64,000 bases of DNA. It comes from Candidatus Aldehydirespiratoraceae bacterium (GTDB taxonomy: Bacteria > Actinomycetota > Acidimicrobiia > Acidimicrobiales > Aldehydirespiratoraceae). Below are positions 7,400 through 34,479 of the stretch, piece after piece. Every line of letters starts with the position of its first letter. Position 1 is the stretch's first letter. Made by a program: the position numbers and the translations under genes. The notes under the pieces are model-generated. The model saw only the letters and a program-made list of their open reading frames with translations. It did not search any database and was not told where the DNA came from. The DNA lies in assembly GCA_965214565.1 (NCBI GenBank), contig OZ243951.1:2579166-2643165 (forward strand), in the 5' to 3' direction.

Positions 7400-8656
7400 A
7401 TGACCACGCTCTCCGGTCGACGCATCATCCTTGGTGTGACCGGCGGAATCGCCGCCTACAAGGCGGTTGAGATCTGTCGTCGTCTAGTTGACGCCGGTGC
7501 GCATGTCACTCCGGTTCTTACTGCAGGCGCCCTGAAGATGGTCGGTGAGGCCACCTTCTCGGCGTTGGCCAGCGAACCGGCGCGCACTTCTCTGTTCAAC
7601 GATCCCTCGAGTCCGATTCCGCACACCGTCATGGGTCGCAATGCTGACTTGGTGCTGGTGGCTCCGGCGACGGCGAGGGTCATTTCCGATATTCGCACGG
7701 GACGCTCGGCTGATCTCTTGACGGCCACGATTCTCGCCACCCGGGCACCGCTGATGATCTGCCCGGCGATGCACACCGAAATGTGGGAACAGGTGTCTGT
7801 GCAGGAGAACCTCGAGGTGCTGCGTGGCCGTGGCGTGCATGTCGTTGATCCAGAGAGTGGCCGACTCGCTGGAGGAGACTTCGGCCTCGGGCGACTCGCC
7901 GAGCCGGCATCGATTGTGACTGCTGTCGGGAGCCTGCTGGCCCCGAACGATCCTGGTGGCCCGAGTGATCTTGGAGGCCAGAATGACCTTGGAGGGATGC
8001 GGGTGCTCGTCACCGCCGGCGGGACTCGCGAGCCAATTGATGCGGTCCGATTTGTGGGCAACCGGTCCTCAGGCAGACAAGGCCATGCCCTCGCACGGAA
8101 CGCGGCGGAACGAGGTGCTGACGTTGTGTTGGTTACAACCAACGCGCTAAGCGCTCCGGGCGGCGTTCGCATCGTGGATGTGTCCACGGCCGAGGAAATG
8201 CATCGTGCTTGCACCGCTGAAGCGCCCGAGGCTGACCTGGTCGTGATGGCCGCAGCGGTCGCAGACTTCCGGCCGCACAGAGCAGTGGATCGCAAACTCA
8301 AGAAGGACGAGGGGATCCTCAGTGTCGAGTTCGAGCCCACGGCCGACATCCTTGCGTGTCTGGGTGCCACCAAACCCGATGGTCAGGTCCTGGTCGGATT
8401 CGCTGCCGAAACCGACGACGTCGAAATTAACGCGGCGGAAAAGCTCGACAAGAAGAACCTGGACATAATCGTGGCGAACGACGTGTCCAAACCCGGTGTC
8501 GGATTTGAGCATGAGACCAACGAGGTTGTAGTGCTACGGGCGGACGGAGTCCGGCAGCACCTTCCGCTGTGCAGCAAGGGCGAGGTGGCCCGTGTCGTGC
8601 TTGATGCCGCCGTTGAAACCCTTAACCGACTCGACAATTCACAGGAGCAAGAGTGA
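7400..8656 (+). CDS. coaBC: bifunctional phosphopantothenoylcysteine decarboxylase / phosphopantothenate-cysteine ligase
   Basis: 418 aa. N-terminal flavoprotein domain ([12 protein letters not shown]..., PAMHTEMW) and C-terminal DFP domain ([22 protein letters not shown]). Confidence 0.92.
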
Positions 8657-9855
8657 CTCGCTGGACCTTCACCTCTGAGAGCGTGACCGAGGGCCATCCG
8701 GACAAGATGGCAGATCAGATTTCAGACTCAATTCTCGATGCCATGTTGGCCCAGGACGAAATGAGTCGTGTGGCCTGCGAAACCATGGTGACTACTGGAC
8801 TTGCGATCGTGGCCGGTGAGATCACCACCGACGCCTATGTGGATATTGCCGGCACGGTACGTGAGACGATCAAGGAGATCGGCTACGACCGTGAAGCCTT
8901 CGGTTACGACGGCAACACCTGCGGGGTGATGGTCACGATCGACGACCAGTCGCCGGACATCTTTCTGGGACTCACCGCGTCTGAAGAGGTTCGTTCCGGT
9001 ATTGCCGGAGAAAAAGACGCACTCGACATGCAGGGGGCCGGGGATCAGGGGATGATGTTCGGCTACGCCTGCGATGAGACTGAGGAACTGATGCCGTTGC
9101 CCATTCACCTCGCTCATCGGATGGCCGAACGCCACGCCGAGGTCCGCAAGGCCGGGACGATTCCCTATCTCCGACCGGATGCCAAGACCCAGGTGACTTT
9201 CGAGTATGAGGGCAGCAAACCTGTTCGGCTCAAGACCGTCCTGGTCTCCACCCAGCACAATGACGGCATCGACCGCGACTCGATGATTCGGCCCGATCTG
9301 ATCGAGCATGTGATTGCTCCGGTCATTCCCGCGGAGTTCGCCGACGACAACTACGACGTCTACGTCAACCCGACGGGCCGTTTCGTGATCGGTGGTCCCG
9401 TGGGGGACTGTGGACTCACCGGACGCAAGATCATTGTCGACACGTACGGTGGGATGGCTCGCCATGGCGGTGGTGCATTCTCAGGCAAGGATCCTTCGAA
9501 GGTCGATCGTTCGGCTGCCTACGCGGCCCGCTGGGTGGCAAAGAACTTGGTCGCCTCGGGAGCAGCAAGCCGCTGTGAGGTTCAGGTCGCCTACGCCATC
9601 GGCATGGCCCGCCCCGTTTCGATCCTTGTCGACACCTTCGGCACGGAGACTGTCGAAAAGGTAGCGATCGACGCAGCCATCGACGACATATTCGATCTCC
9701 GTCCAGCCGCGATACTCCGCGATCTCGATCTCCGTCGTCCGATCTACCGCAAGACCGCCGCATACGGGCACTTCGGCCGTTCGAGCGACGACGGCCTGTT
9801 CCCCTGGGAGCAGACGAACCGGGTCGACGACCTCGTCTCAGCATTGGGACTCTGA
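8653..9855 (+). CDS. metK: S-adenosylmethionine synthetase
   Basis: ...[13 protein letters not shown]..., [27 protein letters not shown]. Confidence 0.97.
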
Positions 9856-25102: not shown

Positions 25103-26473
25103 TTGACCGAGATTCGAGCCAAGGCTCAAGCCCACTTGGTGCCGCATTTCACGCGTGGCGATGCTTGGCAACGCGACGACTTGCTGGTCATAGACCGAGG
25201 CGAAGGCTGTTACGTCTGGGACACCGGGGGCGACGAATACCTTGACGGTCTCTCAGGGTTGTTCTGCACCAACCTCGGCCACGGTCGCAGTGACCTGACC
25301 GCGGTCGCGGCCAAACAGATGGACAAACTGGCCTTCAGTCCCACCTGGAGCTACGTCCACCCCTCGTCCATCGAAGCGTCGTCGCTGATCGCGTCGCTGG
25401 CACCCGCCGACCTCAACCGAGTGTTCTTCGTGAACTCCGGCTCAGAGGCGGTGGAATCGGCTCTCAAGTTTGCGCGTTGCTACCACTTGGCGAACGGCGC
25501 ACCGAATCGCCAGAAGGTGATAGCCCGCCGTTGGGCCTACCACGGGACCACCCTCGGCGCGCTGGCGGTGACGGGCATTCCCAATTTTCGTGACCCCTAC
25601 GAACCGATACTCGGCAGCTTCGTGCGCCATGTCGACAACACCCTCGGCTGTTCCGACCAAACAGGACCCGCCTCCGAACTGCCGTGCGTCGCCGCGGTTG
25701 AACAGGCGATCCTCGCCGAGGGTCCCGAAACGGTGGCAATGGTGATCGCCGAGCCGGTCCAGAACGGTCGGGGAGCGCTGGTCCCGCCTGACGGCTACTG
25801 GCAGGAACTGCGGCGTATCTGCGACACCCACGGCGTGCTGCTCTGCGCGGACGAGGTGATCAACGCCTTCGGTCGTCTCGGCCACTGGTTCGGCAGCGAG
25901 CGCTACGACGTCGTTCCAGACATGATCACCTTCGCCAAAGGCGTCACCAGCGCGTATGTGCCGCTCGGGGGTCTGATCGTGCGGGACCCGCTGGTCGAAC
26001 GGGTGTGGGACTCGCCCTCTGCGATGTTCGTACACGGGGCGACCTTCGGCGGCCATCCCGTAGCCACTGCGGTGGCGGTGGCCAACATGAACGCCATGCG
26101 CGACGAAAAAGTCTTCGACGGCGTGCTGGCCAACGAGGAACGTCTAGTCAGTGGCCTGCGCGCGTTGATGGAGTCCCACGCCTGCGTCTCCGACGTGCGG
26201 GGGACCGGCTACTTCTGTGCCGTGGAATTGATGCGTGACCGTGCCGCCGGCATCCATCTCACCGACACAGAGTTCGCTGAACTGTTACCGGGAGGTGTTC
26301 TGGAACGATTCGTGCGCGAGGCGCGCGTTCTGGTCCGGCCCGACTCTAGAGGCGCCGCCATGTTGGCGGTTGCGCCGCCGCTGGTGGCAGATGCCACCGT
26401 GATCGACGACCTGCTCGCGCGGGTCGACCAAGTGCTCGACCGCGTGGGCGGTTGGCTGAAGGTCTCAACATGA
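25103..26473 (+). CDS. tpa: class III (omega) aminotransferase; candidate taurine:pyruvate aminotransferase by context
   Basis: 456 aa with ...NSGSEAVE...DEVINAFGRLG...FAKGVTSAY (PLP Lys). Clustered with tauABC-like genes, pta and xsc. TTG start after GGAGAGGGGA. Confidence 0.75.
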   Translation: MTEIRAKAQAHLVPHFTRGDAWQRDDLLVIDRGEGCYVWDTGGDEYLDGLSGLFCTNLGHGRSDLTAVAAKQMDKLAFSPTWSYVHPSSIEASSLIASLAPADLNRVFFVNSGSEAVESALKFARCYHLANGAPNRQKVIARRWAYHGTTLGALAVTGIPNFRDPYEPILGSFVRHVDNTLGCSDQTGPASELPCVAAVEQAILAEGPETVAMVIAEPVQNGRGALVPPDGYWQELRRICDTHGVLLCADEVINAFGRLGHWFGSERYDVVPDMITFAKGVTSAYVPLGGLIVRDPLVERVWDSPSAMFVHGATFGGHPVATAVAVANMNAMRDEKVFDGVLANEERLVSGLRALMESHACVSDVRGTGYFCAVELMRDRAAGIHLTDTEFAELLPGGVLERFVREARVLVRPDSRGAAMLAVAPPLVADATVIDDLLARVDQVLDRVGGWLKVST

Positions 26474-26504
26474 GACCACGGAATATCCATTGGAGGGTAA
26501 TCAA

Positions 26505-28535
26505 ATGAAGAGACTACTGGTATTGCTTATGGTGCTCGGCCTCATTGCCGCGGCCTGCGGCGACGACGACTCCGCCGACGGCGGCGACGACGGCGGCACA
26601 ACGACTCCCGAAGAAACCGGTGACGACGGCGACGACGGCGATATGGGTCTCGATGAGTTGAACGTGGCGTACTTCTTGGAGTGGCCGACCGCGAATCAGG
26701 TGGCTCAGGCCGAACAGACTTATGACGCTGAGCTGGGTCTGACTGTGAACTGGATCCCGTTCGCGTCGGGTGGTGACATGGCTCAGGCGATGGAGGCCGG
26801 CGACATCGACATCTCCTATTCGCAGGGTCTGACGCCGTTCGCGAACTTCGTGACCGGTGGGTCCGACCTGCTGTTGGTCGGTGTGGCGGTGACCTATGCC
26901 GACGCCGACAACTGCGTCGCGGGAGCCGACTATGACATAACTGCTGACAACGCCGCGGAGACTCTGGTAGGCCAGAGCATCTATACGCCGTTGGGCAACG
27001 TCACGCATTTCAAGTTGTTGAAGATGCTCGAGCATCTCGGAGTGGACTCCTCGTCTGTGGAGTTGATCCAGTCTGAGGGTGGTCCTGCTGCTGTTGCGGC
27101 TCTGGACTCCGGTGATGTGGCCATGGCCTGTGCGTTCGGCGGCGCTGTCAACCAGATGATCGCCAATGGCGGCAATCTGGTGATGACCGGTGCGGAGCAG
27201 GAGGCCATCGGTATCCGTGTGTTCGACATCATCTCGACCACCGGCGACTTCGCCCAGGCGCATCCCGACATCGTTACTGCATTCCTGCAGGTGACCGAGG
27301 ACGCCAACCGGGCCTACAACGCGGACCGTACGCCGTTCATCGACACGATCGCTGAGGCGGCCGGCATGGATCGTGAACCCACGATTGCTCTGCTCGACGC
27401 ATTCACTTTCCCCGAAAAGGAAGCGCAACTCTCTGATGCCTGGTTGGGCGGCACGGTGCAGTCCACCATGAAGGAGCAGATGGACTTCTTCGTGGCCCAG
27501 GGAGAGATCGAATCGGCACTGCCGAGCTACGACTCCTTCGTCGACACCAGCTTCCTCGAAGCCGTTGAAGGTGGCGCAAGCATGGGCGACGACGTCGAGG
27601 AGATGATGGTCCCTGATGAGTTGAATGTGGCGTACTTCTTGGAGTGGCCGACCGCGAATCAGGTGGCTCAGGCCGAACAGACTTATGACGCTGAGTTGGG
27701 TCTGACTGTGAACTGGATCCCGTTCGCGTCGGGTGGTGACATGGCGCAGGCGATGGAGGCCGGCGACATCGACATCTCCTATTCGCAGGGTCTGACGCCG
27801 TTCGCGAACTTCGTGACCGGTGGGTCCGACCTGCTGTTGGTCGGTGTGGCGGTGACCTATGCCGACGCCGACAACTGTGTGGCCCATCCTGACTACGGCA
27901 TCACCGCTGACAACGCCGCGGAGACTCTGGCGGGCCAGAGCATTTATACGCCGCTTGGTAATGTCACGCATTTCAAGTTGTTGAAGATGCTTGAGCATCT
28001 CGGAGTGGACTCCTCGTCTGTGGAGTTGATCCAGTCTGAGGGTGGTCCTGCTGCTGTTGCGGCTCTGGACTCCGGTGATGTGGCCATGGCCTGTGCGTTC
28101 GGCGGCGCTGTCAACCAGATGATCGCCAATGGCGGCAATCTGGTGATGACCGGTGCGGAGCAGGAGGCCATCGGCATCCGTGTGTTCGACATCATCTCGA
28201 CCACCGGCGACTTCGCGGATGAGTACCCCGGGGTGGTGGCCGCATTCCTGCAGGTGACCGAGGACGCCAACCGGGCCTACAACGCGGACCGGTCGCCGTT
28301 CATCGACACGATCGCTGAGGCGGCCGGCATGGATCGTGAACCCACGATTGCTCTGCTCGACGCGTTCGCTTTCCCCGAAAAGGACGTGCAGCTGTCTGAT
28401 GCCTGGTTGGGCGGCACGGTGCAGTCCACCATGAAGGAGCAGATGGACTTCTTCGTGGCCCAGGGCGAGATCGACTCGGCACTGCCGAGCTACGACTCCT
28501 TCGTCGACACCAGCTTCCTCGAAGCCGTCGAATAG
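26505..28535 (+). CDS. tauA: lipoprotein with two tandem TauA/NMT1-type sulfonate/taurine binding domains
   Basis: Signal peptide plus lipobox-like LIAAAC. Two roughly 306-aa modules, about 95% identical, each with ...W..F.SGGDMAQAMEAGDIDISYSQGLTPFA... similar to E. coli TauA. Confidence 0.85.
   Translation: MKRLLVLLMVLGLIAAACGDDDSADGGDDGGTTTPEETGDDGDDGDMGLDELNVAYFLEWPTANQVAQAEQTYDAELGLTVNWIPFASGGDMAQAMEAGDIDISYSQGLTPFANFVTGGSDLLLVGVAVTYADADNCVAGADYDITADNAAETLVGQSIYTPLGNVTHFKLLKMLEHLGVDSSSVELIQSEGGPAAVAALDSGDVAMACAFGGAVNQMIANGGNLVMTGAEQEAIGIRVFDIISTTGDFAQAHPDIVTAFLQVTEDANRAYNADRTPFIDTIAEAAGMDREPTIALLDAFTFPEKEAQLSDAWLGGTVQSTMKEQMDFFVAQGEIESALPSYDSFVDTSFLEAVEGGASMGDDVEEMMVPDELNVAYFLEWPTANQVAQAEQTYDAELGLTVNWIPFASGGDMAQAMEAGDIDISYSQGLTPFANFVTGGSDLLLVGVAVTYADADNCVAHPDYGITADNAAETLAGQSIYTPLGNVTHFKLLKMLEHLGVDSSSVELIQSEGGPAAVAALDSGDVAMACAFGGAVNQMIANGGNLVMTGAEQEAIGIRVFDIISTTGDFADEYPGVVAAFLQVTEDANRAYNADRSPFIDTIAEAAGMDREPTIALLDAFAFPEKDVQLSDAWLGGTVQSTMKEQMDFFVAQGEIDSALPSYDSFVDTSFLEAVE
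26652..28532 (+). repeat. 963-bp direct tandem duplication (2 copies, in frame, 321 codons per unit)
   Basis: GATGAGTTGAA(C/T)GTGGCGTACTTCTTGGAGTGGCCG starts at 26652 and again at 27615. Long identical stretches are interrupted by a few clustered substitutions. Confidence 0.95.
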
Positions 28536-28656
28536 AAACCTCCTGACCACAGCCGGGCGGCCGTAGTCGACACAGACCAGTCGGCAACGGTTGCCCGGTT
28601 AGGGTCAGCCAAGCAATAATCGCCGCGGGCCAACATGTGGCCAGAAGGGGGATTAC

Positions 28657-30027
28657 GTGGATTCGATCGTTCAAGGTCTGGCCGATGTATACGACGTCAT
28701 CACCTATGTGATCGCCCGGGGTGCCTACTGGCTGTCGGTCGCGTTCTTCGTGTTGGCAGCGGTCGGCGCAGCACTGATGTTCATTGATCTGCTGAAAACT
28801 CCCTCACGGCGCTTCCTAGACGCAGACCACGCCGCGAAGCCCAGCGACGGCATCGTATTGATCGGCCAGCTCATGGCGGGAATGTCGCTTGTCGGCGGAG
28901 TCGTGCTGGTGTTCCGCGACACCGCTTCGCCGTGGCAACCAGCAGCGGCCCTGCTCGGTGGAGCGGCGCTGCTCACTCTCCTGTTGGTGTACAGACGAAC
29001 TGACGAATCCAAACAGGCCGGGATCGTCCGGTACGTCTGGCTCGCCCTCGCCGTCGCCGCAGTGGTGGCCGTGATCTTGGCGTACATGCAGCGCGAAGAC
29101 TCTTCCATCCCTTTCCTCGGCCTGCTCTTGGCGGTGTTCGTGCTGGCCCGAGCCTGGTTCTCGTTGGCTCGTCCCGAAGTCCACTTCGACCCGTCCCAGG
29201 TGGAGGTCGCGCGTGAGTCCAAGACCGAGAGTCCGCTTGTGGTCGAACAGCTCGGAATGGTCTACGAACTGCCCGACGGCGGCAGTGTGGAGGCCCTCAA
29301 GGACGTGACGTTCACGCTTGAGCCCGGACGCCTGCTCACCCTGCTCGGGCCGTCGGGGTGCGGTAAGACCACTCTGCTCAACATTCTCGCCGGTTTCCTG
29401 GCCCCCACCGCCGGCGAGGCGAAGCTCGGCAACGATGTGATCACCGGTCCCAGCCAGGAACGGGGCATGGTGTTCCAGCAGGGGGCGCTGTTCGAGTGGC
29501 TCACCGTCAACGACAATGTCGGTTTCGGAGCTCGTATGAACGGCCGGTCCCGGCCTGCTTCCCGGGAGGCGGTGCAGGACCTGCTTCGCATAGTCGGCCT
29601 GTCGGAATTTGGGGAGAAGGCGGTCTACGAACTCTCTGGAGGCATGCAACAGCGTGTGGCGCTGGCCCGCTGCCTCGCCAACGACCCCAAGATCATCCTC
29701 ATGGACGAGCCGCTCGGCGCGCTCGACGCTCTGACCCGCGAGAAGATGCAGAGTCTGGTTCTCAACCTGTGGAACGAGACCGGCAAGACCATCGTGCTGG
29801 TCACCCACAGCGTCGAGGAGGCGCTGTATCTGGGCGATCAGCTGTTTGTCATGGCCCCGCGCCCCGGTCGTATAGAACGGGTCTACGACCTGCCGTTCGC
29901 TCAGCAGGCGCTGACCGCGGACGCCCGAGAACTGAAGACCTCCCCCGAGTTCATTGCGACGCGAGAGGAGATCCTGTCGATGATCTGGGAGATGGAGGAG
30001 CAGATCATGGGAACGGGAGGCCAGTGA
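28657..30027 (+). CDS. tauB: NitT/TauT-family ABC ATPase with a roughly 190-aa N-terminal multi-pass membrane extension
   Basis: Walker A GPSGCGKTT, signature LSGGMQQR and Walker B ILMDEP. The N-terminus has about 5 hydrophobic segments. Confidence 0.85.
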   Translation: MDSIVQGLADVYDVITYVIARGAYWLSVAFFVLAAVGAALMFIDLLKTPSRRFLDADHAAKPSDGIVLIGQLMAGMSLVGGVVLVFRDTASPWQPAAALLGGAALLTLLLVYRRTDESKQAGIVRYVWLALAVAAVVAVILAYMQREDSSIPFLGLLLAVFVLARAWFSLARPEVHFDPSQVEVARESKTESPLVVEQLGMVYELPDGGSVEALKDVTFTLEPGRLLTLLGPSGCGKTTLLNILAGFLAPTAGEAKLGNDVITGPSQERGMVFQQGALFEWLTVNDNVGFGARMNGRSRPASREAVQDLLRIVGLSEFGEKAVYELSGGMQQRVALARCLANDPKIILMDEPLGALDALTREKMQSLVLNLWNETGKTIVLVTHSVEEALYLGDQLFVMAPRPGRIERVYDLPFAQQALTADARELKTSPEFIATREEILSMIWEMEEQIMGTGGQ

Positions 30028-31088
30028 TGGCTGAAGGTCCTGGAGGGCACGCACTCAAAGACAACATCGACCAACAGGCCAAACAGTCGAACTGGCCGTT
30101 CAACTGGATGTTCCAGAAGAAGGGGGCGAGTGCCCGCAAGACCGTGACGTTCGGCGACGCCTCCGAGGTGAGCGGCGCGCTGCCGTGGACTGTGGTCAGT
30201 CTGGTCGTGATTCTGCTGGTGTGGTTCCTGGCGACGACGGTCTGGGGCCTGCCGTCTGAATGGGTGGACTACGGAGACGAAGTGCGTGCCGGTCTCACTG
30301 AGGATGAGCGCTACCGCCAGCGTGACCTGCTTCGCGACTGCGACAAGGCAGCCGACGACCCCTCAGAATTCCCGGGACTCCCACCCTGTTCGTACACCCA
30401 GTGGCTCAGCGAATCGACCCTTCCCCACCCACTGCAGGTGTGGGACGCGACCTGGGACTTTGCTCGCAACGGCTATAGCGGATTCACGCTTTGGCAACAC
30501 CTGTGGGTGAGCTTCAGCCGTCTGGCGAAGGGCCTGTTCTGGGGGGTGGCCATCGGTGTGCCCATCGGGTTGGCCATGGGCCTGTCGAATCGCTGGCGGG
30601 GCGTGTTCGACCCGGTGGTCGAACTGCTGCGGCCGATACCCCCTCTGGCTCTGATCCCGTTGTTCATTGTGTGGTTCGGAATCGGCGAGGAAGGCAAGGT
30701 CAACCTGCTGCTGTTCGCGGCCGTCTGGATCATGGTCATCGCGGCGCGCTCGGGGGTGCTCGCGGTCAACACCACCAAGGTTCATGCCGCCTATTCTCTG
30801 GGCGCGTCGAAGGCTCAAGTGTTGCGTCACGTGATCCTGCCCAACGCGCTGCCTGAGATCTTCACGGGGTTGCGCGTGGCGATCGGTGTGTGCTGGGGCA
30901 CTCTGGTTGCTGCTGAACTGCTCGGTGCCAGTTCCGGACTCGGTTTCACGATCTTCAAGGCCCGCCAGTTCTTCCTGCTCGACCTAATGCTGTCGGCGGT
31001 GATCCTCATCAGCATTCTGGGCGTGAGCATGGATGTGGCCATGCGCATGGCCGAGAAGAGGTTGATCCCCTGGCGGGGGAAGGGCTGA
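30027..31088 (+). CDS. tauC: NitT/TauT-family ABC permease
   Basis: ATGA overlap with the tauB stop. C-terminal BPD-transporter fold ...LRPIPPLALIPLFIVWFGIGE...; the upstream 177 codons of track ORF 29496 are out-of-frame tauB. Confidence 0.85.
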   Translation: MAEGPGGHALKDNIDQQAKQSNWPFNWMFQKKGASARKTVTFGDASEVSGALPWTVVSLVVILLVWFLATTVWGLPSEWVDYGDEVRAGLTEDERYRQRDLLRDCDKAADDPSEFPGLPPCSYTQWLSESTLPHPLQVWDATWDFARNGYSGFTLWQHLWVSFSRLAKGLFWGVAIGVPIGLAMGLSNRWRGVFDPVVELLRPIPPLALIPLFIVWFGIGEEGKVNLLLFAAVWIMVIAARSGVLAVNTTKVHAAYSLGASKAQVLRHVILPNALPEIFTGLRVAIGVCWGTLVAAELLGASSGLGFTIFKARQFFLLDLMLSAVILISILGVSMDVAMRMAEKRLIPWRGKG

Positions 31089-31098
31089 TCGCTTCGCT

Positions 31099-32034
31099 GT
31101 GAGCGTTCTCGAGGGTTGGTACAGCAGCGCGCGGGCGAACCCGCAGCGCATCATCCTGGCCGATGCAGACGACCGGCGGGCTGTCGGAGCGGTCGATCGG
31201 CTCAATGCACAGGGTCTGGTCGAGGCATTGGTGGCGGGCAGGGACTTCGGCTCGCTCGCCGAGATCGCCCATGATCCCGCGGAGCGCCTCGTTGAGGAAC
31301 TGGCCGGGGCAGAGACGGGACCGTGGGCCGGACGTCGTCTCGACGTTGACGATCCACTGGTGATGTCTGCGGCTCTGGTCAAGACAGGCTGGGCTGCGGG
31401 GTGCGTGGGTGGCGCGAGCCGTTCCAGCGCCGAGGTGGTGCGGGCCGGTTTGCGGGTGCTCGGGGTCGCGCCTGGGGTTGAAGCGGTGAGCAGTTGCTTC
31501 TTCTTCGTGCTGCCCGACGGCCGCGCAGTGGTCTACGGCGACTGCGGGGTGCTGCCCGATCCTGACGATCAGCAACTGGCCTCGGTGGCGATCTCGAGCG
31601 CGGCCACGTTCGCTCAACTGTCCGGCGAGGAGCCCCGTGTCGCCATGCTCTCGTTCTCAACCAAGGGGAGTGCACAACACCCGCGGGTCGACAAGGTGCG
31701 CAGCGCAACCGCGATTGCTCAGCAGGCCGCGCCAGGTCTGAAGATCGACGGCGAATTGCAGTTCGATGCGGCGTGGGTCCGAGCGGTCGGTGAGGTCAAG
31801 GCGCCCGGTTCCGAGGTTGCCGGCAGAGCCAATGTGTTCGTCTTTCCGGATCTCGACTCCGGCAACATCGCATACAAGATCACCGAACGGCTGGGCGGCG
31901 CGCTTGCTTTCGGACCTCTGCTGCAGGGGTTGAACGGTGTGTTGCATGACCTCTCGCGGGGTTGTTCTGAAGACGACATCGTCAACGTGGCGGTCATCGC
32001 CTCAATCCAAGCCTCCGCGCTGCGCTCCCTCTAA
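31099..32034 (+). CDS. pta: phosphate acetyltransferase (PTA_PTB-only short form)
   Basis: ...FPDLDSGNIAYKI.ERLGGA.A.GP.LQGL...DLSRGCS.DDIVN... Confidence 0.85.
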   Translation: MSVLEGWYSSARANPQRIILADADDRRAVGAVDRLNAQGLVEALVAGRDFGSLAEIAHDPAERLVEELAGAETGPWAGRRLDVDDPLVMSAALVKTGWAAGCVGGASRSSAEVVRAGLRVLGVAPGVEAVSSCFFFVLPDGRAVVYGDCGVLPDPDDQQLASVAISSAATFAQLSGEEPRVAMLSFSTKGSAQHPRVDKVRSATAIAQQAAPGLKIDGELQFDAAWVRAVGEVKAPGSEVAGRANVFVFPDLDSGNIAYKITERLGGALAFGPLLQGLNGVLHDLSRGCSEDDIVNVAVIASIQASALRSL

Positions 32035-32058: not shown

Positions 32059-32661
32059 ATGAGCGGACTGCCCAGGCGGACTCTGGACCAGGCGCAAGTG
32101 GTCGAGTGCGCCTCTTCTCTGGCAGACAGCGAGGGCTTCGACGCGGTCACACTCACTCGCGTTGCTGACGAACTCGGTGTTCGTCAACCAGCGCTGTATC
32201 GCCATGTCGAAGGGTATGACGACCTCGTGAAACAACTGGCTCTGAGAGGTCGCGAGAAACTCGCCCGTTCGCTGACCGAGGCAGCCGTCGGTGTGTCGGG
32301 CCCCGAGGCCGTCGTAGCAATCGGGCGGGCCTGGCGGGAGGTCGTGAGGACTCATCCTGGCCTGTATGCCGCAACCGACCGACATCCCTGCGCGGGCGAT
32401 GTTGAATTGGAGGAGGCGGTGGAGAGGATCGTGGGGGTCATTGCGCGGTCTTTGGGGAGCTTCAGCATCGACGAAGCTGAGCGTGTTCATGTGGCGCGCG
32501 GGTTGCGGAGTTCTTTCCACGGGTTCTCTCATCTTGAGTCTGGTGACGGGCATCCACACGAACACGACCTTGATGACACGTTCGATCATCTGCTGGAGCT
32601 CTTGATCGCCGGGATCCGCCATCTGGAGCGGGATTCTGCGCTAGATAGTCTTGCGGACTAG
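32059..32661 (+). CDS. TetR family transcriptional regulator
   Basis: N-terminal HTH ...GFDAVTLTRVADELGVRQPALYRHV... Confidence 0.85.
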   Translation: MSGLPRRTLDQAQVVECASSLADSEGFDAVTLTRVADELGVRQPALYRHVEGYDDLVKQLALRGREKLARSLTEAAVGVSGPEAVVAIGRAWREVVRTHPGLYAATDRHPCAGDVELEEAVERIVGVIARSLGSFSIDEAERVHVARGLRSSFHGFSHLESGDGHPHEHDLDDTFDHLLELLIAGIRHLERDSALDSLAD

Positions 32662-32712: not shown

Positions 32713-34479
32713 ATGACCCGGATGACCCCCAGCGAAGCGTTCGTCGAAACCATGGTTGCCAATGGTGTGACCACCGTCTTCGGGATCATGGGCAGCGCGT
32801 TCATGGACGCCATGGACATTTTCGAGCCCGCAGGCATCGAGTTGGTACCTGTGGTCCACGAACAGGGTGCCGCCCACATGGCCGACGGCTACGCCCGGGT
32901 CAGTGGTCGCCATGGAGTCGTCATCGGCCAGAACGGCCCCGGCATCTCCAACTGTGTGACGGCAATCGCGGCCGCCTTCTGGGCACACAGCCCCGTGGTC
33001 ATCGTCACCCCCGAAGCCGGGACGATGGGAATGGGCCTCGGCGGTTTCCAAGAAGCCAACCAGCTGCCGATGTTCGAGGAGTTCACCAAGTATCAGGGCC
33101 ACATCAACAACGAGAATCGCATGGCCGAGATCACTGCCCGCTGCTTCGACCGGGCGCTGTCGGAAATGGGTCCGACACAACTCAACATTCCCCGTGACCG
33201 CTTCTACGGCGACATCAACGTGGATATCCCGACCCCGATGCGCCTGGACCGGGGCCCCGGTGGTGAGCGAACGCTGAACGAAGCGGCGGACCTGTTGGCC
33301 CAAGCCCAGTTCCCGGTCATCGTCAGCGGGGGCGGCGTCGTGATGGGTGACGGCATGGCCGAGACGATCGCCCTGGCCGAGAGACTCGGCGCCCCGGTCC
33401 TCAACAGCTACCTGCACAACGATTCGTTCCCCGCCGGCCATCCGCAGTGGTGCGGCCCACTGGGCTATCAGGGCTCGAAAGCCGCGATGAAACTGATCGC
33501 GCGGGCTGATGTGGTGCTGGCGCTCGGCACCCGCCTGGGGCCGTTCGGTACCCTTCCCCAGCATGGTCTCGACTACTGGCCGGCCGATGCGAGGATCATT
33601 CAGGTAGACGCCGACTCGAAGATGCTCGGGCTGGTCAAGAAGATCGATGTCGGAATCTGCGGCGATGCCGGTGCCGCCGCGGCCGCTCTGACCTCGCGGT
33701 TGGCGCAGCGCACGCTGGTAGCGGACGGCAACCGCGTCGAACGGGAGTCCACGATGCGCGCTGAGAAGTCAGCCTGGGAGGCCGAACTAGACGACTGGAC
33801 CGAGGAGACCGACGACTTCAGCATCGACATGATCAAGGAGGCAGCAGCCGAGGAGGGTAGTTGGCTGCACCCCCGCCAGGCCCTGCGCGAACTGGAGAAG
33901 GCGATGCCGGCTCGGGTGATGGTGTCCACCGACATCGGCAACATCAACTCGGTATCCAACAGTTACCTGCGTTTCGAGGAGCCCCGGTCATTCTTCGCGG
34001 CCATGAGCTGGGGCAACTGCGGTTATGCGCTGCCCACCATCATCGGCGCCAAGAAGGCTGCCGACGACCGTCCCGCGGTGGCGTACGCCGGTGACGGTGC
34101 CTGGGCAATGAGCATGGTCGAGGTGATGACCGCGGTGCGCCACGACATTCCCGTCACAGCAGTCGTGTTCCACAACCGCCAATGGGGAGCAGAGAAGAAG
34201 AACCAGGTCGACTTCTACGGTCGCCGGTTCGTGGCCGGGGAACTCGAAGGTGGCGAGAACTACGCCCACATCGCCGACGCGATGGGGGCGACAGGTGTTC
34301 GTGTTGACCAGCTTGATGACGTCGGGCCGGCGCTGGAGCGGGCGATCGACGATCAGATGACGAAACGGCAGACCACGGTGATTGAGGTCATGACCACCAA
34401 GGAACTCGGCGACCCCTTCCGCAAGGACGCCCTGAGTCGCCCGGTCCGCCACCTGGAGAAGTACGCCGATTACACCTAG
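32713..34479 (+). CDS. xsc: sulfoacetaldehyde acetyltransferase (ThDP-dependent)
   Basis: 588 aa ThDP enzyme with ...GIMGSAFMDAMD...HEQGAAHMADGYARVSGRHGVVIGQNGPGISN...GGFQEANQLPMF.... Identified from family resemblance plus the tpa/pta/tauABC context. Confidence 0.8.
   Translation: MTRMTPSEAFVETMVANGVTTVFGIMGSAFMDAMDIFEPAGIELVPVVHEQGAAHMADGYARVSGRHGVVIGQNGPGISNCVTAIAAAFWAHSPVVIVTPEAGTMGMGLGGFQEANQLPMFEEFTKYQGHINNENRMAEITARCFDRALSEMGPTQLNIPRDRFYGDINVDIPTPMRLDRGPGGERTLNEAADLLAQAQFPVIVSGGGVVMGDGMAETIALAERLGAPVLNSYLHNDSFPAGHPQWCGPLGYQGSKAAMKLIARADVVLALGTRLGPFGTLPQHGLDYWPADARIIQVDADSKMLGLVKKIDVGICGDAGAAAAALTSRLAQRTLVADGNRVERESTMRAEKSAWEAELDDWTEETDDFSIDMIKEAAAEEGSWLHPRQALRELEKAMPARVMVSTDIGNINSVSNSYLRFEEPRSFFAAMSWGNCGYALPTIIGAKKAADDRPAVAYAGDGAWAMSMVEVMTAVRHDIPVTAVVFHNRQWGAEKKNQVDFYGRRFVAGELEGGENYAHIADAMGATGVRVDQLDDVGPALERAIDDQMTKRQTTVIEVMTTKELGDPFRKDALSRPVRHLEKYADYT

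Follow-up and report, generated by a model that had tools for sequence, protein, structure and literature searches.

We analysed a 64,000-nt stretch of DNA from Candidatus Aldehydirespiratoraceae bacterium (contig OZ243951.1; the whole stretch is called the window below) and found that its gene tauA2 codes for a TauA-type lipoprotein with two almost identical binding domains, d1 and d2, on one chain. It is quite probable that the product is a conserved taurine receptor, that its two domains go back to an old duplication subject to gene conversion, and that it doubles the capture sites serving the adjoining TauBC importer of a taurine catabolic operon. Under this reading, the protein would be attached to the membrane through a lipid anchor followed by a 31-aa (amino acid) acidic tether, d1, a 15-aa linker and d2. 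A single old duplication would have been followed by repeated homogenisation of the copies through intragenic conversion, while a short island would keep one sequence type (H-type) in the membrane-proximal domain and another (Y-type) in the distal domain. The benefit would lie in two sites, rather than one, held beside the translocator, in analogy to GlnPQ with its tandem domains.

The gene tauA2 (26505..28535, + strand; 676 aa plus stop) was delineated from the open reading frame (ORF), Pfam and NCBIfam matches and a database match. The longest ORF here, 26490-28535 on the + strand, has 681 aa when begun at TTG. The true start is almost certainly the ATG at 26505, preceded by a ribosome-binding site; this is the Shine-Dalgarno sequence GGAGGG (26492..26497, + strand), found by inspection 7 nt 5' of the ATG. 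Throughout the text, the residue numbers of domains, island and patches are those of the 681-aa ORF. The 676-aa product is identical to a database protein, P0003, encoded on a 3.23-Mb contig. Its signal peptide with lipobox (MKRLLVLLMVLGLIAAAC; 26505..26558, + strand; Cys codon at 26556-26558) ends with LIAAAC, and a pattern match showed that MKRLLVLLMVLGLIAAAC-GDDD is conserved among relatives. The product is thus predicted to be a bacterial lipoprotein. The remaining features follow on the same strand: the acidic low-complexity tether of 31 aa from the lipid-anchor Cys to d1 (26559..26651), d1 itself (residues 55-360; 26652..27569), the inter-domain linker of 15 aa (GGASMGDDVEEMMVP; 27570..27614), placed by sequence and by the junction shared with relatives, and d2 (residues 376-681; 27615..28532). 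The stop codon TAG stands directly after the second domain.

The borders of d1 and d2 came from a comparison of the two arms of a direct repeat. Tandem Repeats Finder is blind to this repeat, its longest period being 500, and we measured the repeat directly. Two collinear arms of 918 nt stand in a register of 963 nt, start to start. Mismatches occupy 48 of the 918 positions (94.8% identity). At the codon level, 23 codons carry synonymous differences only, and 15 of 306 residues differ between d1 and d2 (95.1% identity). The mismatches lie in clusters, leaving a longest mismatch-free stretch of 182 nt where 81 nt would be expected (permutation P=0.0009). The initial annotation of this locus had described a double TauA-like lipoprotein with two complete domains in one 681-aa ORF and a period of 963; the repeat and the domain matches confirmed both, with arms at 26652-27569 and 27615-28532. 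It had called the duplication near-perfect, which overstates the identity measured here. It had also reported about 14 amino acid differences gathered in patches; the clustering held, and the count is 15. The three patches that it quoted were read correctly and lie at residues 145-149, 256-263 and 311-312. On the - strand, an antisense ORF of 678 aa (26514-28550) spans the whole of tauA2 and is itself internally repeated; we regard it as a mirror ORF typical of high-GC coding DNA and not as a gene, although signs of coding were not looked for.

Each half of the protein matches the Pfam families NMT1_2 and NMT1 (PF13379, 3.1e-18, and PF09084, 7e-14, two stretches each), and the NCBIfam model TIGR01728 (SsuA_fam) scores 182.9 bits, above its cutoff of 163.5. 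By profile match, both domains are assigned to the substrate-binding type of the NitT/TauT family (TauA/SsuA). The taurine-specific TauA model PRK11480 scores 181.5 bits, under its cutoff of 490. The nearest solved structure is that of Escherichia coli TauA (6SSY and related entries), aligned with E=3.5e-25 over residues 13-301 of the 306-residue domain.

The two-domain architecture is conserved among relatives. A search of 5.8 billion protein clusters produced 289 matches at E<=1e-10. All 120 matches listed are multi-domain proteins, with two TauA domains in 117 and three in 3; they come from metagenome-assembled genomes (MAGs) of Acidimicrobiia, many of them on contigs of 3-4 Mb. In a scan with one genome per species, which detected 74 loci, two full TauA domains were found in 33 loci and one in 30. 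Many of these loci come from chromosome-level assemblies, and the names that they carry include Candidatus Aldehydirespiratoraceae, Poriferisocius and Poriferisodalis. In a tree of the flanking TauB ATPase and TauC, the basal lineages had one domain and a derived clade had mostly two, joined by a common junction: EAVEG[R/G], then 5-15 aa, then DELNV. All 33 two-domain proteins of this tree have tethers of 25-44 aa (median 35) between the lipid-anchor Cys and d1, compared to a bimodal distribution in single-domain relatives, with 6-12 aa in 14 of 23. Such long tethers would speak for the use of both domains, because a long tether suits two domains that have to reach the translocator.

Met, Asp and Glu abound in the inter-domain linkers, for example in the window (GGASMGDDVEEMMVP) and in P0005 (MMDDMMEETMEETMEDDMMMESMERP). 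We observed this composition in the window, P0005, P0121 and P0122, and it persists even in lineages that are only about 55% identical. Shared ancestry may account for it, or else a demand of function.

Proteins with more than one TauA domain are, on the whole, rare. When 1.84 billion clusters formed at 50% identity were surveyed, at least two long TauA matches were present in just four of the best 150 cluster representatives (P0004, P0121, P0122 and P0137), and nearly all full-length relatives among these 150 are single-domain proteins of about 330 aa. The remark of the initial annotation that fused tandem binding proteins are uncommon in the NitT/TauT family agrees with these figures. In the searchable literature on tandem TauA, or on these taxa together with taurine, we found no prior description.

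The likeness of the two domains is a product of gene conversion. We compared the DNA of 34 two-domain genomes, including the window, in 561 genome pairs. At the protein level, d1 and d2 of one protein are 91-99.7% identical (median 95.8%), as opposed to 87-94% for domains of the same position in different genomes. At the DNA level, d1 and d2 of one genome are 87.6-99.6% identical, and they are mutual closest relatives in 18 of the 34 genomes. In close genome pairs, d1 groups with d1 and d2 groups with d2; in L011 and L012, for example, the same-position identity is 98%, compared to 90% within a genome. Over all pairs, the same-position identity exceeded the cross-position identity in 418 of the 561. 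Between distant clades, the positional signal is restricted to residues ~235-280 and the C-terminal end.

Within this segment lies an island of about 12 codons, located in d1 at residues 253-264 (DFAQAHPDIVTA, H-type; 27246..27281, + strand) and in d2 at residues 574-585 (DFADEYPGVVAA, Y-type; 28209..28244, + strand). In comparisons between clades, the same-position and cross-position identities outside the island are 0.833 and 0.831, compared to 0.934 between the copies of one genome. For the island, the respective values are 0.656, 0.597 and 0.581. The mean number of synonymous substitutions per site (dS) within a genome is 0.235 versus 0.836 between clades; for the island it is ~1.15. The island and the extreme C-terminus escape homogenisation.

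The window itself shows the same process. Its value in the series of within-genome dS averaged above is 0.133. In the comparison with the nearest relative, L028, its d1-d2 dS is 0.144, lower than the dS to this relative (0.21 for d1-d1 and 0.23 for d2-d2). Since the two copies in one genome are closer than their counterparts in the nearest relative, their identity outside the spared sites is due to intragenic gene conversion, i.e. concerted evolution, and not to youth. The comparison with L028 also showed 29 sites changed jointly in both copies and 15 positional sites, with no crossed sites. These 15 positional sites, shared by the window and L028, are at residues 145-148, 160, 256-262 and 312. 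The differences between d1 and d2 that are shared with L028 are inherited and so far have been spared by conversion. The duplication appears to be old and to predate the split of several sponge-associated Acidimicrobiia lineages (with names like Aldehydirespiratoraceae and Poriferisocius), because the junction EAVEG[R/G]..DELNV and the order of island types are shared among them. We also considered the patch at residues 145-149 as a positional feature of the whole family and rejected it, as residue 145 may be N, H or G in both positions; the patch is positional among the closest relatives of the window only.

The genomic context points to the substrate. The gene tauA2 stands in a compact same-strand cluster with the order tpa-tauA2-tauB-tauC-pta-tetR-xsc. 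First in the cluster is a class-III aminotransferase, a probable taurine:pyruvate aminotransferase (Tpa; 25103..26473; Pfam Aminotran_3, 7.2e-82). Its score against the NCBIfam model PRK06541, 570 bits, is narrowly below the cutoff of 574, and an aminotransferase 5' of tauA is kept in 56 loci. Downstream of tauA2 are tauB, an ATP-binding cassette (ABC) ATPase with an N-terminal extension of ~190 aa (28657..30027; extension 28657-29235), and tauC, a permease of 353 aa (30027..31088) whose start overlaps the tauB stop (TGATG). Both were identified by Pfam, NCBIfam and gene calls, and taurine models are the best matches of both. Next come pta, phosphate acetyltransferase (31099..32034; PF01515, 9.8e-89; NCBIfam PRK09653, 313 bits with a cutoff of 310), a TetR-family regulator (32059..32661; profile match and gene calls) and xsc, sulfoacetaldehyde acetyltransferase (32713..34479; equivalog TIGR03457, 995.7 bits with a cutoff of 676.4). 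In a MAG from NCBI, independent gene calls gave the same order of nine genes and the same sizes; the double TauA has 679 aa there, and TauB, with its extension, has 457 aa. Together, Tpa, Xsc and Pta make up the established route from taurine to acetyl-CoA and sulfite. This pathway has been described for sponge symbionts (PMC10356861). The ligand of tauA2 is, judging from the gene context, likely taurine or a very close aminosulfonate, because xsc and pta pass curated cutoffs and the best matches of TauB and TauC are taurine models.

Two further features of this cluster may be of interest. The 121-nt gap between tauA2 and tauB (28536-28656) holds a short GC-rich palindrome, GGCAACGGTTGCC, without a T-run; it might stabilise the transcript or attenuate transcription, favouring the receptor over the transporter. 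In TauC, the E. coli-type TauC model matches only from about residue 124 onward. The part before this residue (within 30027-30400) has one hydrophobic segment and a stretch of ~70 aa with two Cys residues, RDCDKAADDPSEFPGLPPCSY, that may form an extracytoplasmic loop.

Ligand contacts of E. coli TauA are Gln30, Gly61, Gly79, Glu106, Thr132 and Asp205 (PMC6906117). We placed the corresponding positions by a family-wide alignment through 57 intermediate sequences. The residues S60, G61, G79 and D205 of E. coli TauA correspond to S93, G94, G113 and D246 in d1 and to S414, G415, G434 and D567 in d2, while E106 corresponds to D140 and D461, Q30 to F62 and F383, and T132 to V171 and V492, respectively. 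A pairwise HMMER alignment had paired Glu106 with Val143; this pairing was dropped since the family-wide alignment pairs Glu106 with Asp140/Asp461. All seven aligned positions are identical between d1 and d2. Most of the aligned relatives also have Phe where E. coli TauA has Q30, and with the change of T132 to Val the side-chain contact alone is lost. Because the predicted contact residues are identical, d1 and d2 would be expected to share one ligand, either taurine or an aminosulfonate close to it. Under the main reading, both domains would also dock productively on the importer.

Several observations weigh against a taurine receptor in which both domains are needed. The taurine equivalog TIGR01729 is the best match of the protein, yet it scores only 277.9 bits with the two domains added together, short of the cutoff of 304.25. 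The changes Gln30 to Phe and Thr132 to Val mean that the geometry of taurine binding may differ from that in E. coli TauA. An AlphaFold2 model of the full protein, made with 32 close homologues as the alignment, had a mean predicted local distance difference test score (pLDDT) of 42 and was not used. Single-domain genes, several of them in chromosome-scale assemblies, are nested inside the two-domain clade, where they are probably collapses of the double form. In 8 of the 34 genomes, both domains carry one and the same 12-residue island motif, the difference having been erased in both directions. Given these erased islands and the chromosome-scale single-domain relatives within the clade, some lineages can do without the second domain and without the island difference.

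Among the alternatives, we weighed the possibility that the two domains have become specialised. The island and patches such as 145-149 would then tune a difference between the proximal and the distal domain, and selection would block homogenisation of the island; the difference could concern how a domain docks on TauC, how the domains touch each other or the linker, or how second-shell residues influence affinity or the range of ligands. We regard this as doubtful, though there are arguments in its favour. The island is the sole internal segment with a positional signal between distant clades. At residue 258, the pair of residues in d1 and d2 is H,Y or N,Y in 23 of the 34 genomes and 78 of the 117 two-domain protein clusters, and the reversed order, Y,H, was found in none of the 34 genomes and none of the 117 clusters. 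In same-position comparisons between clades, the island had a number of nonsynonymous substitutions per site (dN) of 0.316 and a dS of 1.245, which points to purifying selection within each island type. The domains of GlnPQ do differ in specificity and affinity (PMC8025302). On the other hand, the first-shell residues are the same in d1 and d2, and residue 258 has been homogenised in 11 of the 34 genomes, to H,H in 8 (23 clusters) and to Y,Y in 3 (16 clusters). Single-copy relatives bear either type (16 H-type, 14 Y-type). The island is homologous to residues 214-223 of E. coli TauA (DFAEKHPEVV); it is predicted to lie outside the first shell of the ligand, because this segment begins the helix that follows the Asp205-bearing strand. 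The initial annotation had suggested that the divergence possibly alters ligand range or avidity; the identity of the positions homologous to E. coli TauA contacts speaks against a changed ligand range. Moreover, a diverged stretch can resist conversion mechanically, by heteroduplex rejection, with no selection involved, and the protection of the island may be due to selection or to heteroduplex rejection alone.

A broader idea concerns TauB. Its extension (28657-29235) has five predicted transmembrane (TM) segments, and a good ribosome-binding site stands ahead of the tauB GTG start. The extension is present in all close loci, including those with a single TauA, and absent from the basal loci L058 and L064. 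A Pfam scan of the extension gave no match, and none of the solved structures covers TauB residues 1-183. A homologue search with the extension returned six fragments, all from its own lineage; this search was word-index-limited and is a poor gauge of distribution. In three loci, L006 (8143-10512, insert at ~8476-9414), L007 (8170-10539) and L056 (170-2575), the extension of TauB contains an in-frame insert of ~313 aa, which separates TM2 from TM3. The insert corresponds to residues ~293-598 of the window TauA and is 82% identical to it, i.e. it makes one repeat period in a circularly permuted register that crosses the junction from d1 through the linker to d2. The predicted ligand-contact motifs are retained in it. 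The positive-inside rule, applied by eye, would place the loop with the insert outside the cell. TauB of the window has the extension with no TauA insertion.

Taken with the occurrence of one to three TauA copies with matching tethers, the positional island and fusions of binding proteins, the TauB extension and insert led us to consider a distinct organisation of ABC importers, where the evolving trait would be how many binding domains surround TauBC and where they are placed, and where the island would adapt the proximal and the distal domain to their positions. We hold this to be rather unlikely, and offer it as a speculation. If it were true, the permuted domain of TauB would derive from the tandem gene via duplication followed by permutation, and TauB's membrane extension would act as a scaffold or a sensor for the binding domains. 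The lineage also has binding-protein fusions of other kinds: L061 (5965-8145) joins TauA to a PotD-like polyamine binding protein, P0123 joins it to SBP_bac_5 and P0124 to Peripla_BP_6, while P0122 has two TauA domains and Peripla_BP_6. Proteins of other lineages combine TauA-like domains with Ser/Thr protein kinase domains (P0130, P0138), a caspase domain (P0179) or ankyrin repeats (P0245), which suggests sensor or other non-transport uses of the TauA fold.

Copy number is dynamic, with one, two or three domains, and one could suppose recurrent independent duplications in each lineage instead of one old event followed by conversion. The locus L027 has a double with domains 99.5% identical and a different linker, nested among single-copy relatives, and could have been duplicated independently. 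Different linkers also occur in the three-domain proteins P0001, P0002, P0005 and P0121. Still, within the clade of the window the junction and the island order are common, and close genomes show positional orthology of d1 and d2; as an account of the tandem gene in this clade, recurrent duplication is very unlikely. Two loci, L030 (5971-8072) and L044 (5896-7879), have a second TauA domain that does not stay in one reading frame, perhaps through a frameshift or because this copy is truncated; either decay of the domain or a sequencing error may lie behind it.

The initial annotation had proposed a very recent tandem duplication in this genome, with few new, localised changes. The close similarity of the arms, with its long mismatch-free runs, would fit such an event, and so would L027 if it is indeed a recent, possibly independent doubling. 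However, the two-domain form is present in 33 other species-level genomes and in 117 clusters, and the architecture, its one junction and the fixed H-then-Y order span clades in which TauB and TauC are only ~93% identical. Fifteen of the sites at which d1 and d2 of the window differ, including the patches at 145-148, 256-262 and 312, are common to L028 and hence are not new; the island dS of ~1.15 and the d1-d2 dS of the window, lower than the same-position dS to L028, do not fit a recent event either. We consider a recent origin extremely improbable. Finally, the scenario of an assembly artefact, where two strain variants of a single tauA were put in tandem, has in its favour the ~5% divergence of the copies, which resembles that of strain variants, and has practically no credibility given the in-frame fusion with a dedicated 15-aa linker, the identical protein on the 3.23-Mb contig, the island order that is position-specific across genomes, and the same in-frame architecture in dozens of independent chromosome-scale assemblies as well as short-read MAGs.

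The old tandem receptor kept alike by conversion is of interest in several respects. It is a clean case of intragenic concerted evolution with a conversion-resistant island, and it carries a caution that high identity of repeats does not imply a recent duplication. Relatives with one, two and three copies and varied tethers make a natural series in which domain number and reach could be related to uptake at low substrate. Sponges and their symbionts are known to use taurine as a currency, so the doubled receptor may be a trait of host adaptation.

Among known systems, E. coli TauA (6SSY, 6ST0; PMC6906117) is similar to each domain in its near full-length alignment, in the conserved residues S60, G61, G79 and D205, in an acidic residue at the position of E106 and in its place beside tauB and tauC. 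The identity is only ~30%, though, and the E. coli protein has one domain only, is soluble in the periplasm and serves in sulfur scavenging. The TauA of the window, on the contrary, is a duplicated lipoprotein in a dissimilatory tpa-xsc-pta operon, with Phe in place of Gln30 and Val in place of Thr132.

For the inserted TauA domain, a comparison is offered by NrtC, whose extra domain is C-terminal and cytoplasmic. The cyanobacterial nitrate and bicarbonate proteins NrtC and CmpC (8WM7, 9U9Z) belong to the NitT/TauT family, are among the nearest solved relatives of the window TauB ATPase and set a precedent for a binding-protein-like domain on the ATPase subunit, as in TauB of L006, L007 and L056. 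Unlike NrtC, these three carry a circularly permuted TauA in a predicted extracytoplasmic loop of the N-terminal extension.

With respect to repeat evolution, the bacterial surface 'periscope' repeat proteins vary in length and show concerted evolution of tandem repeats. They share with tauA2 near-identical intragenic DNA repeats in a surface protein, copy-number variation and homogenisation by recombination. The unit of tauA2, however, is a whole 306-aa binding protein rather than a stalk module, it occurs in one to three copies, and it has a position-specific island.

It is chiefly in importers of the GlnPQ type that tandem binding domains are familiar; there they share a chain with the membrane subunit and have diverged. 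GlnPQ, known from Lactococcus lactis and other Gram-positives, is similar to tauA2 in having two class-II substrate-binding domains (SBDs) per polypeptide with a short flexible linker, 14 aa compared to 15 aa here; the 14-aa linker of GlnPQ joins independent domains (PMC8025302). In both cases the SBDs are held at the membrane beside a type I ABC importer, and the presumed gain is more sites near the translocator. The two differ in that GlnPQ has its domains joined covalently to the transmembrane subunit, and these domains are of the polar amino-acid family and diverged, with different specificities, whereas tauA2 is a separate gene of the NitT/TauT family with its own signal peptide and lipobox, TauC being encoded apart, and its domains are 95% identical, have identical predicted contacts and are kept alike by conversion. 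The tandem-SBD principle was already known; what appears to be new is its use in a lipid-anchored, homotypic lipoprotein of the NitT/TauT family.

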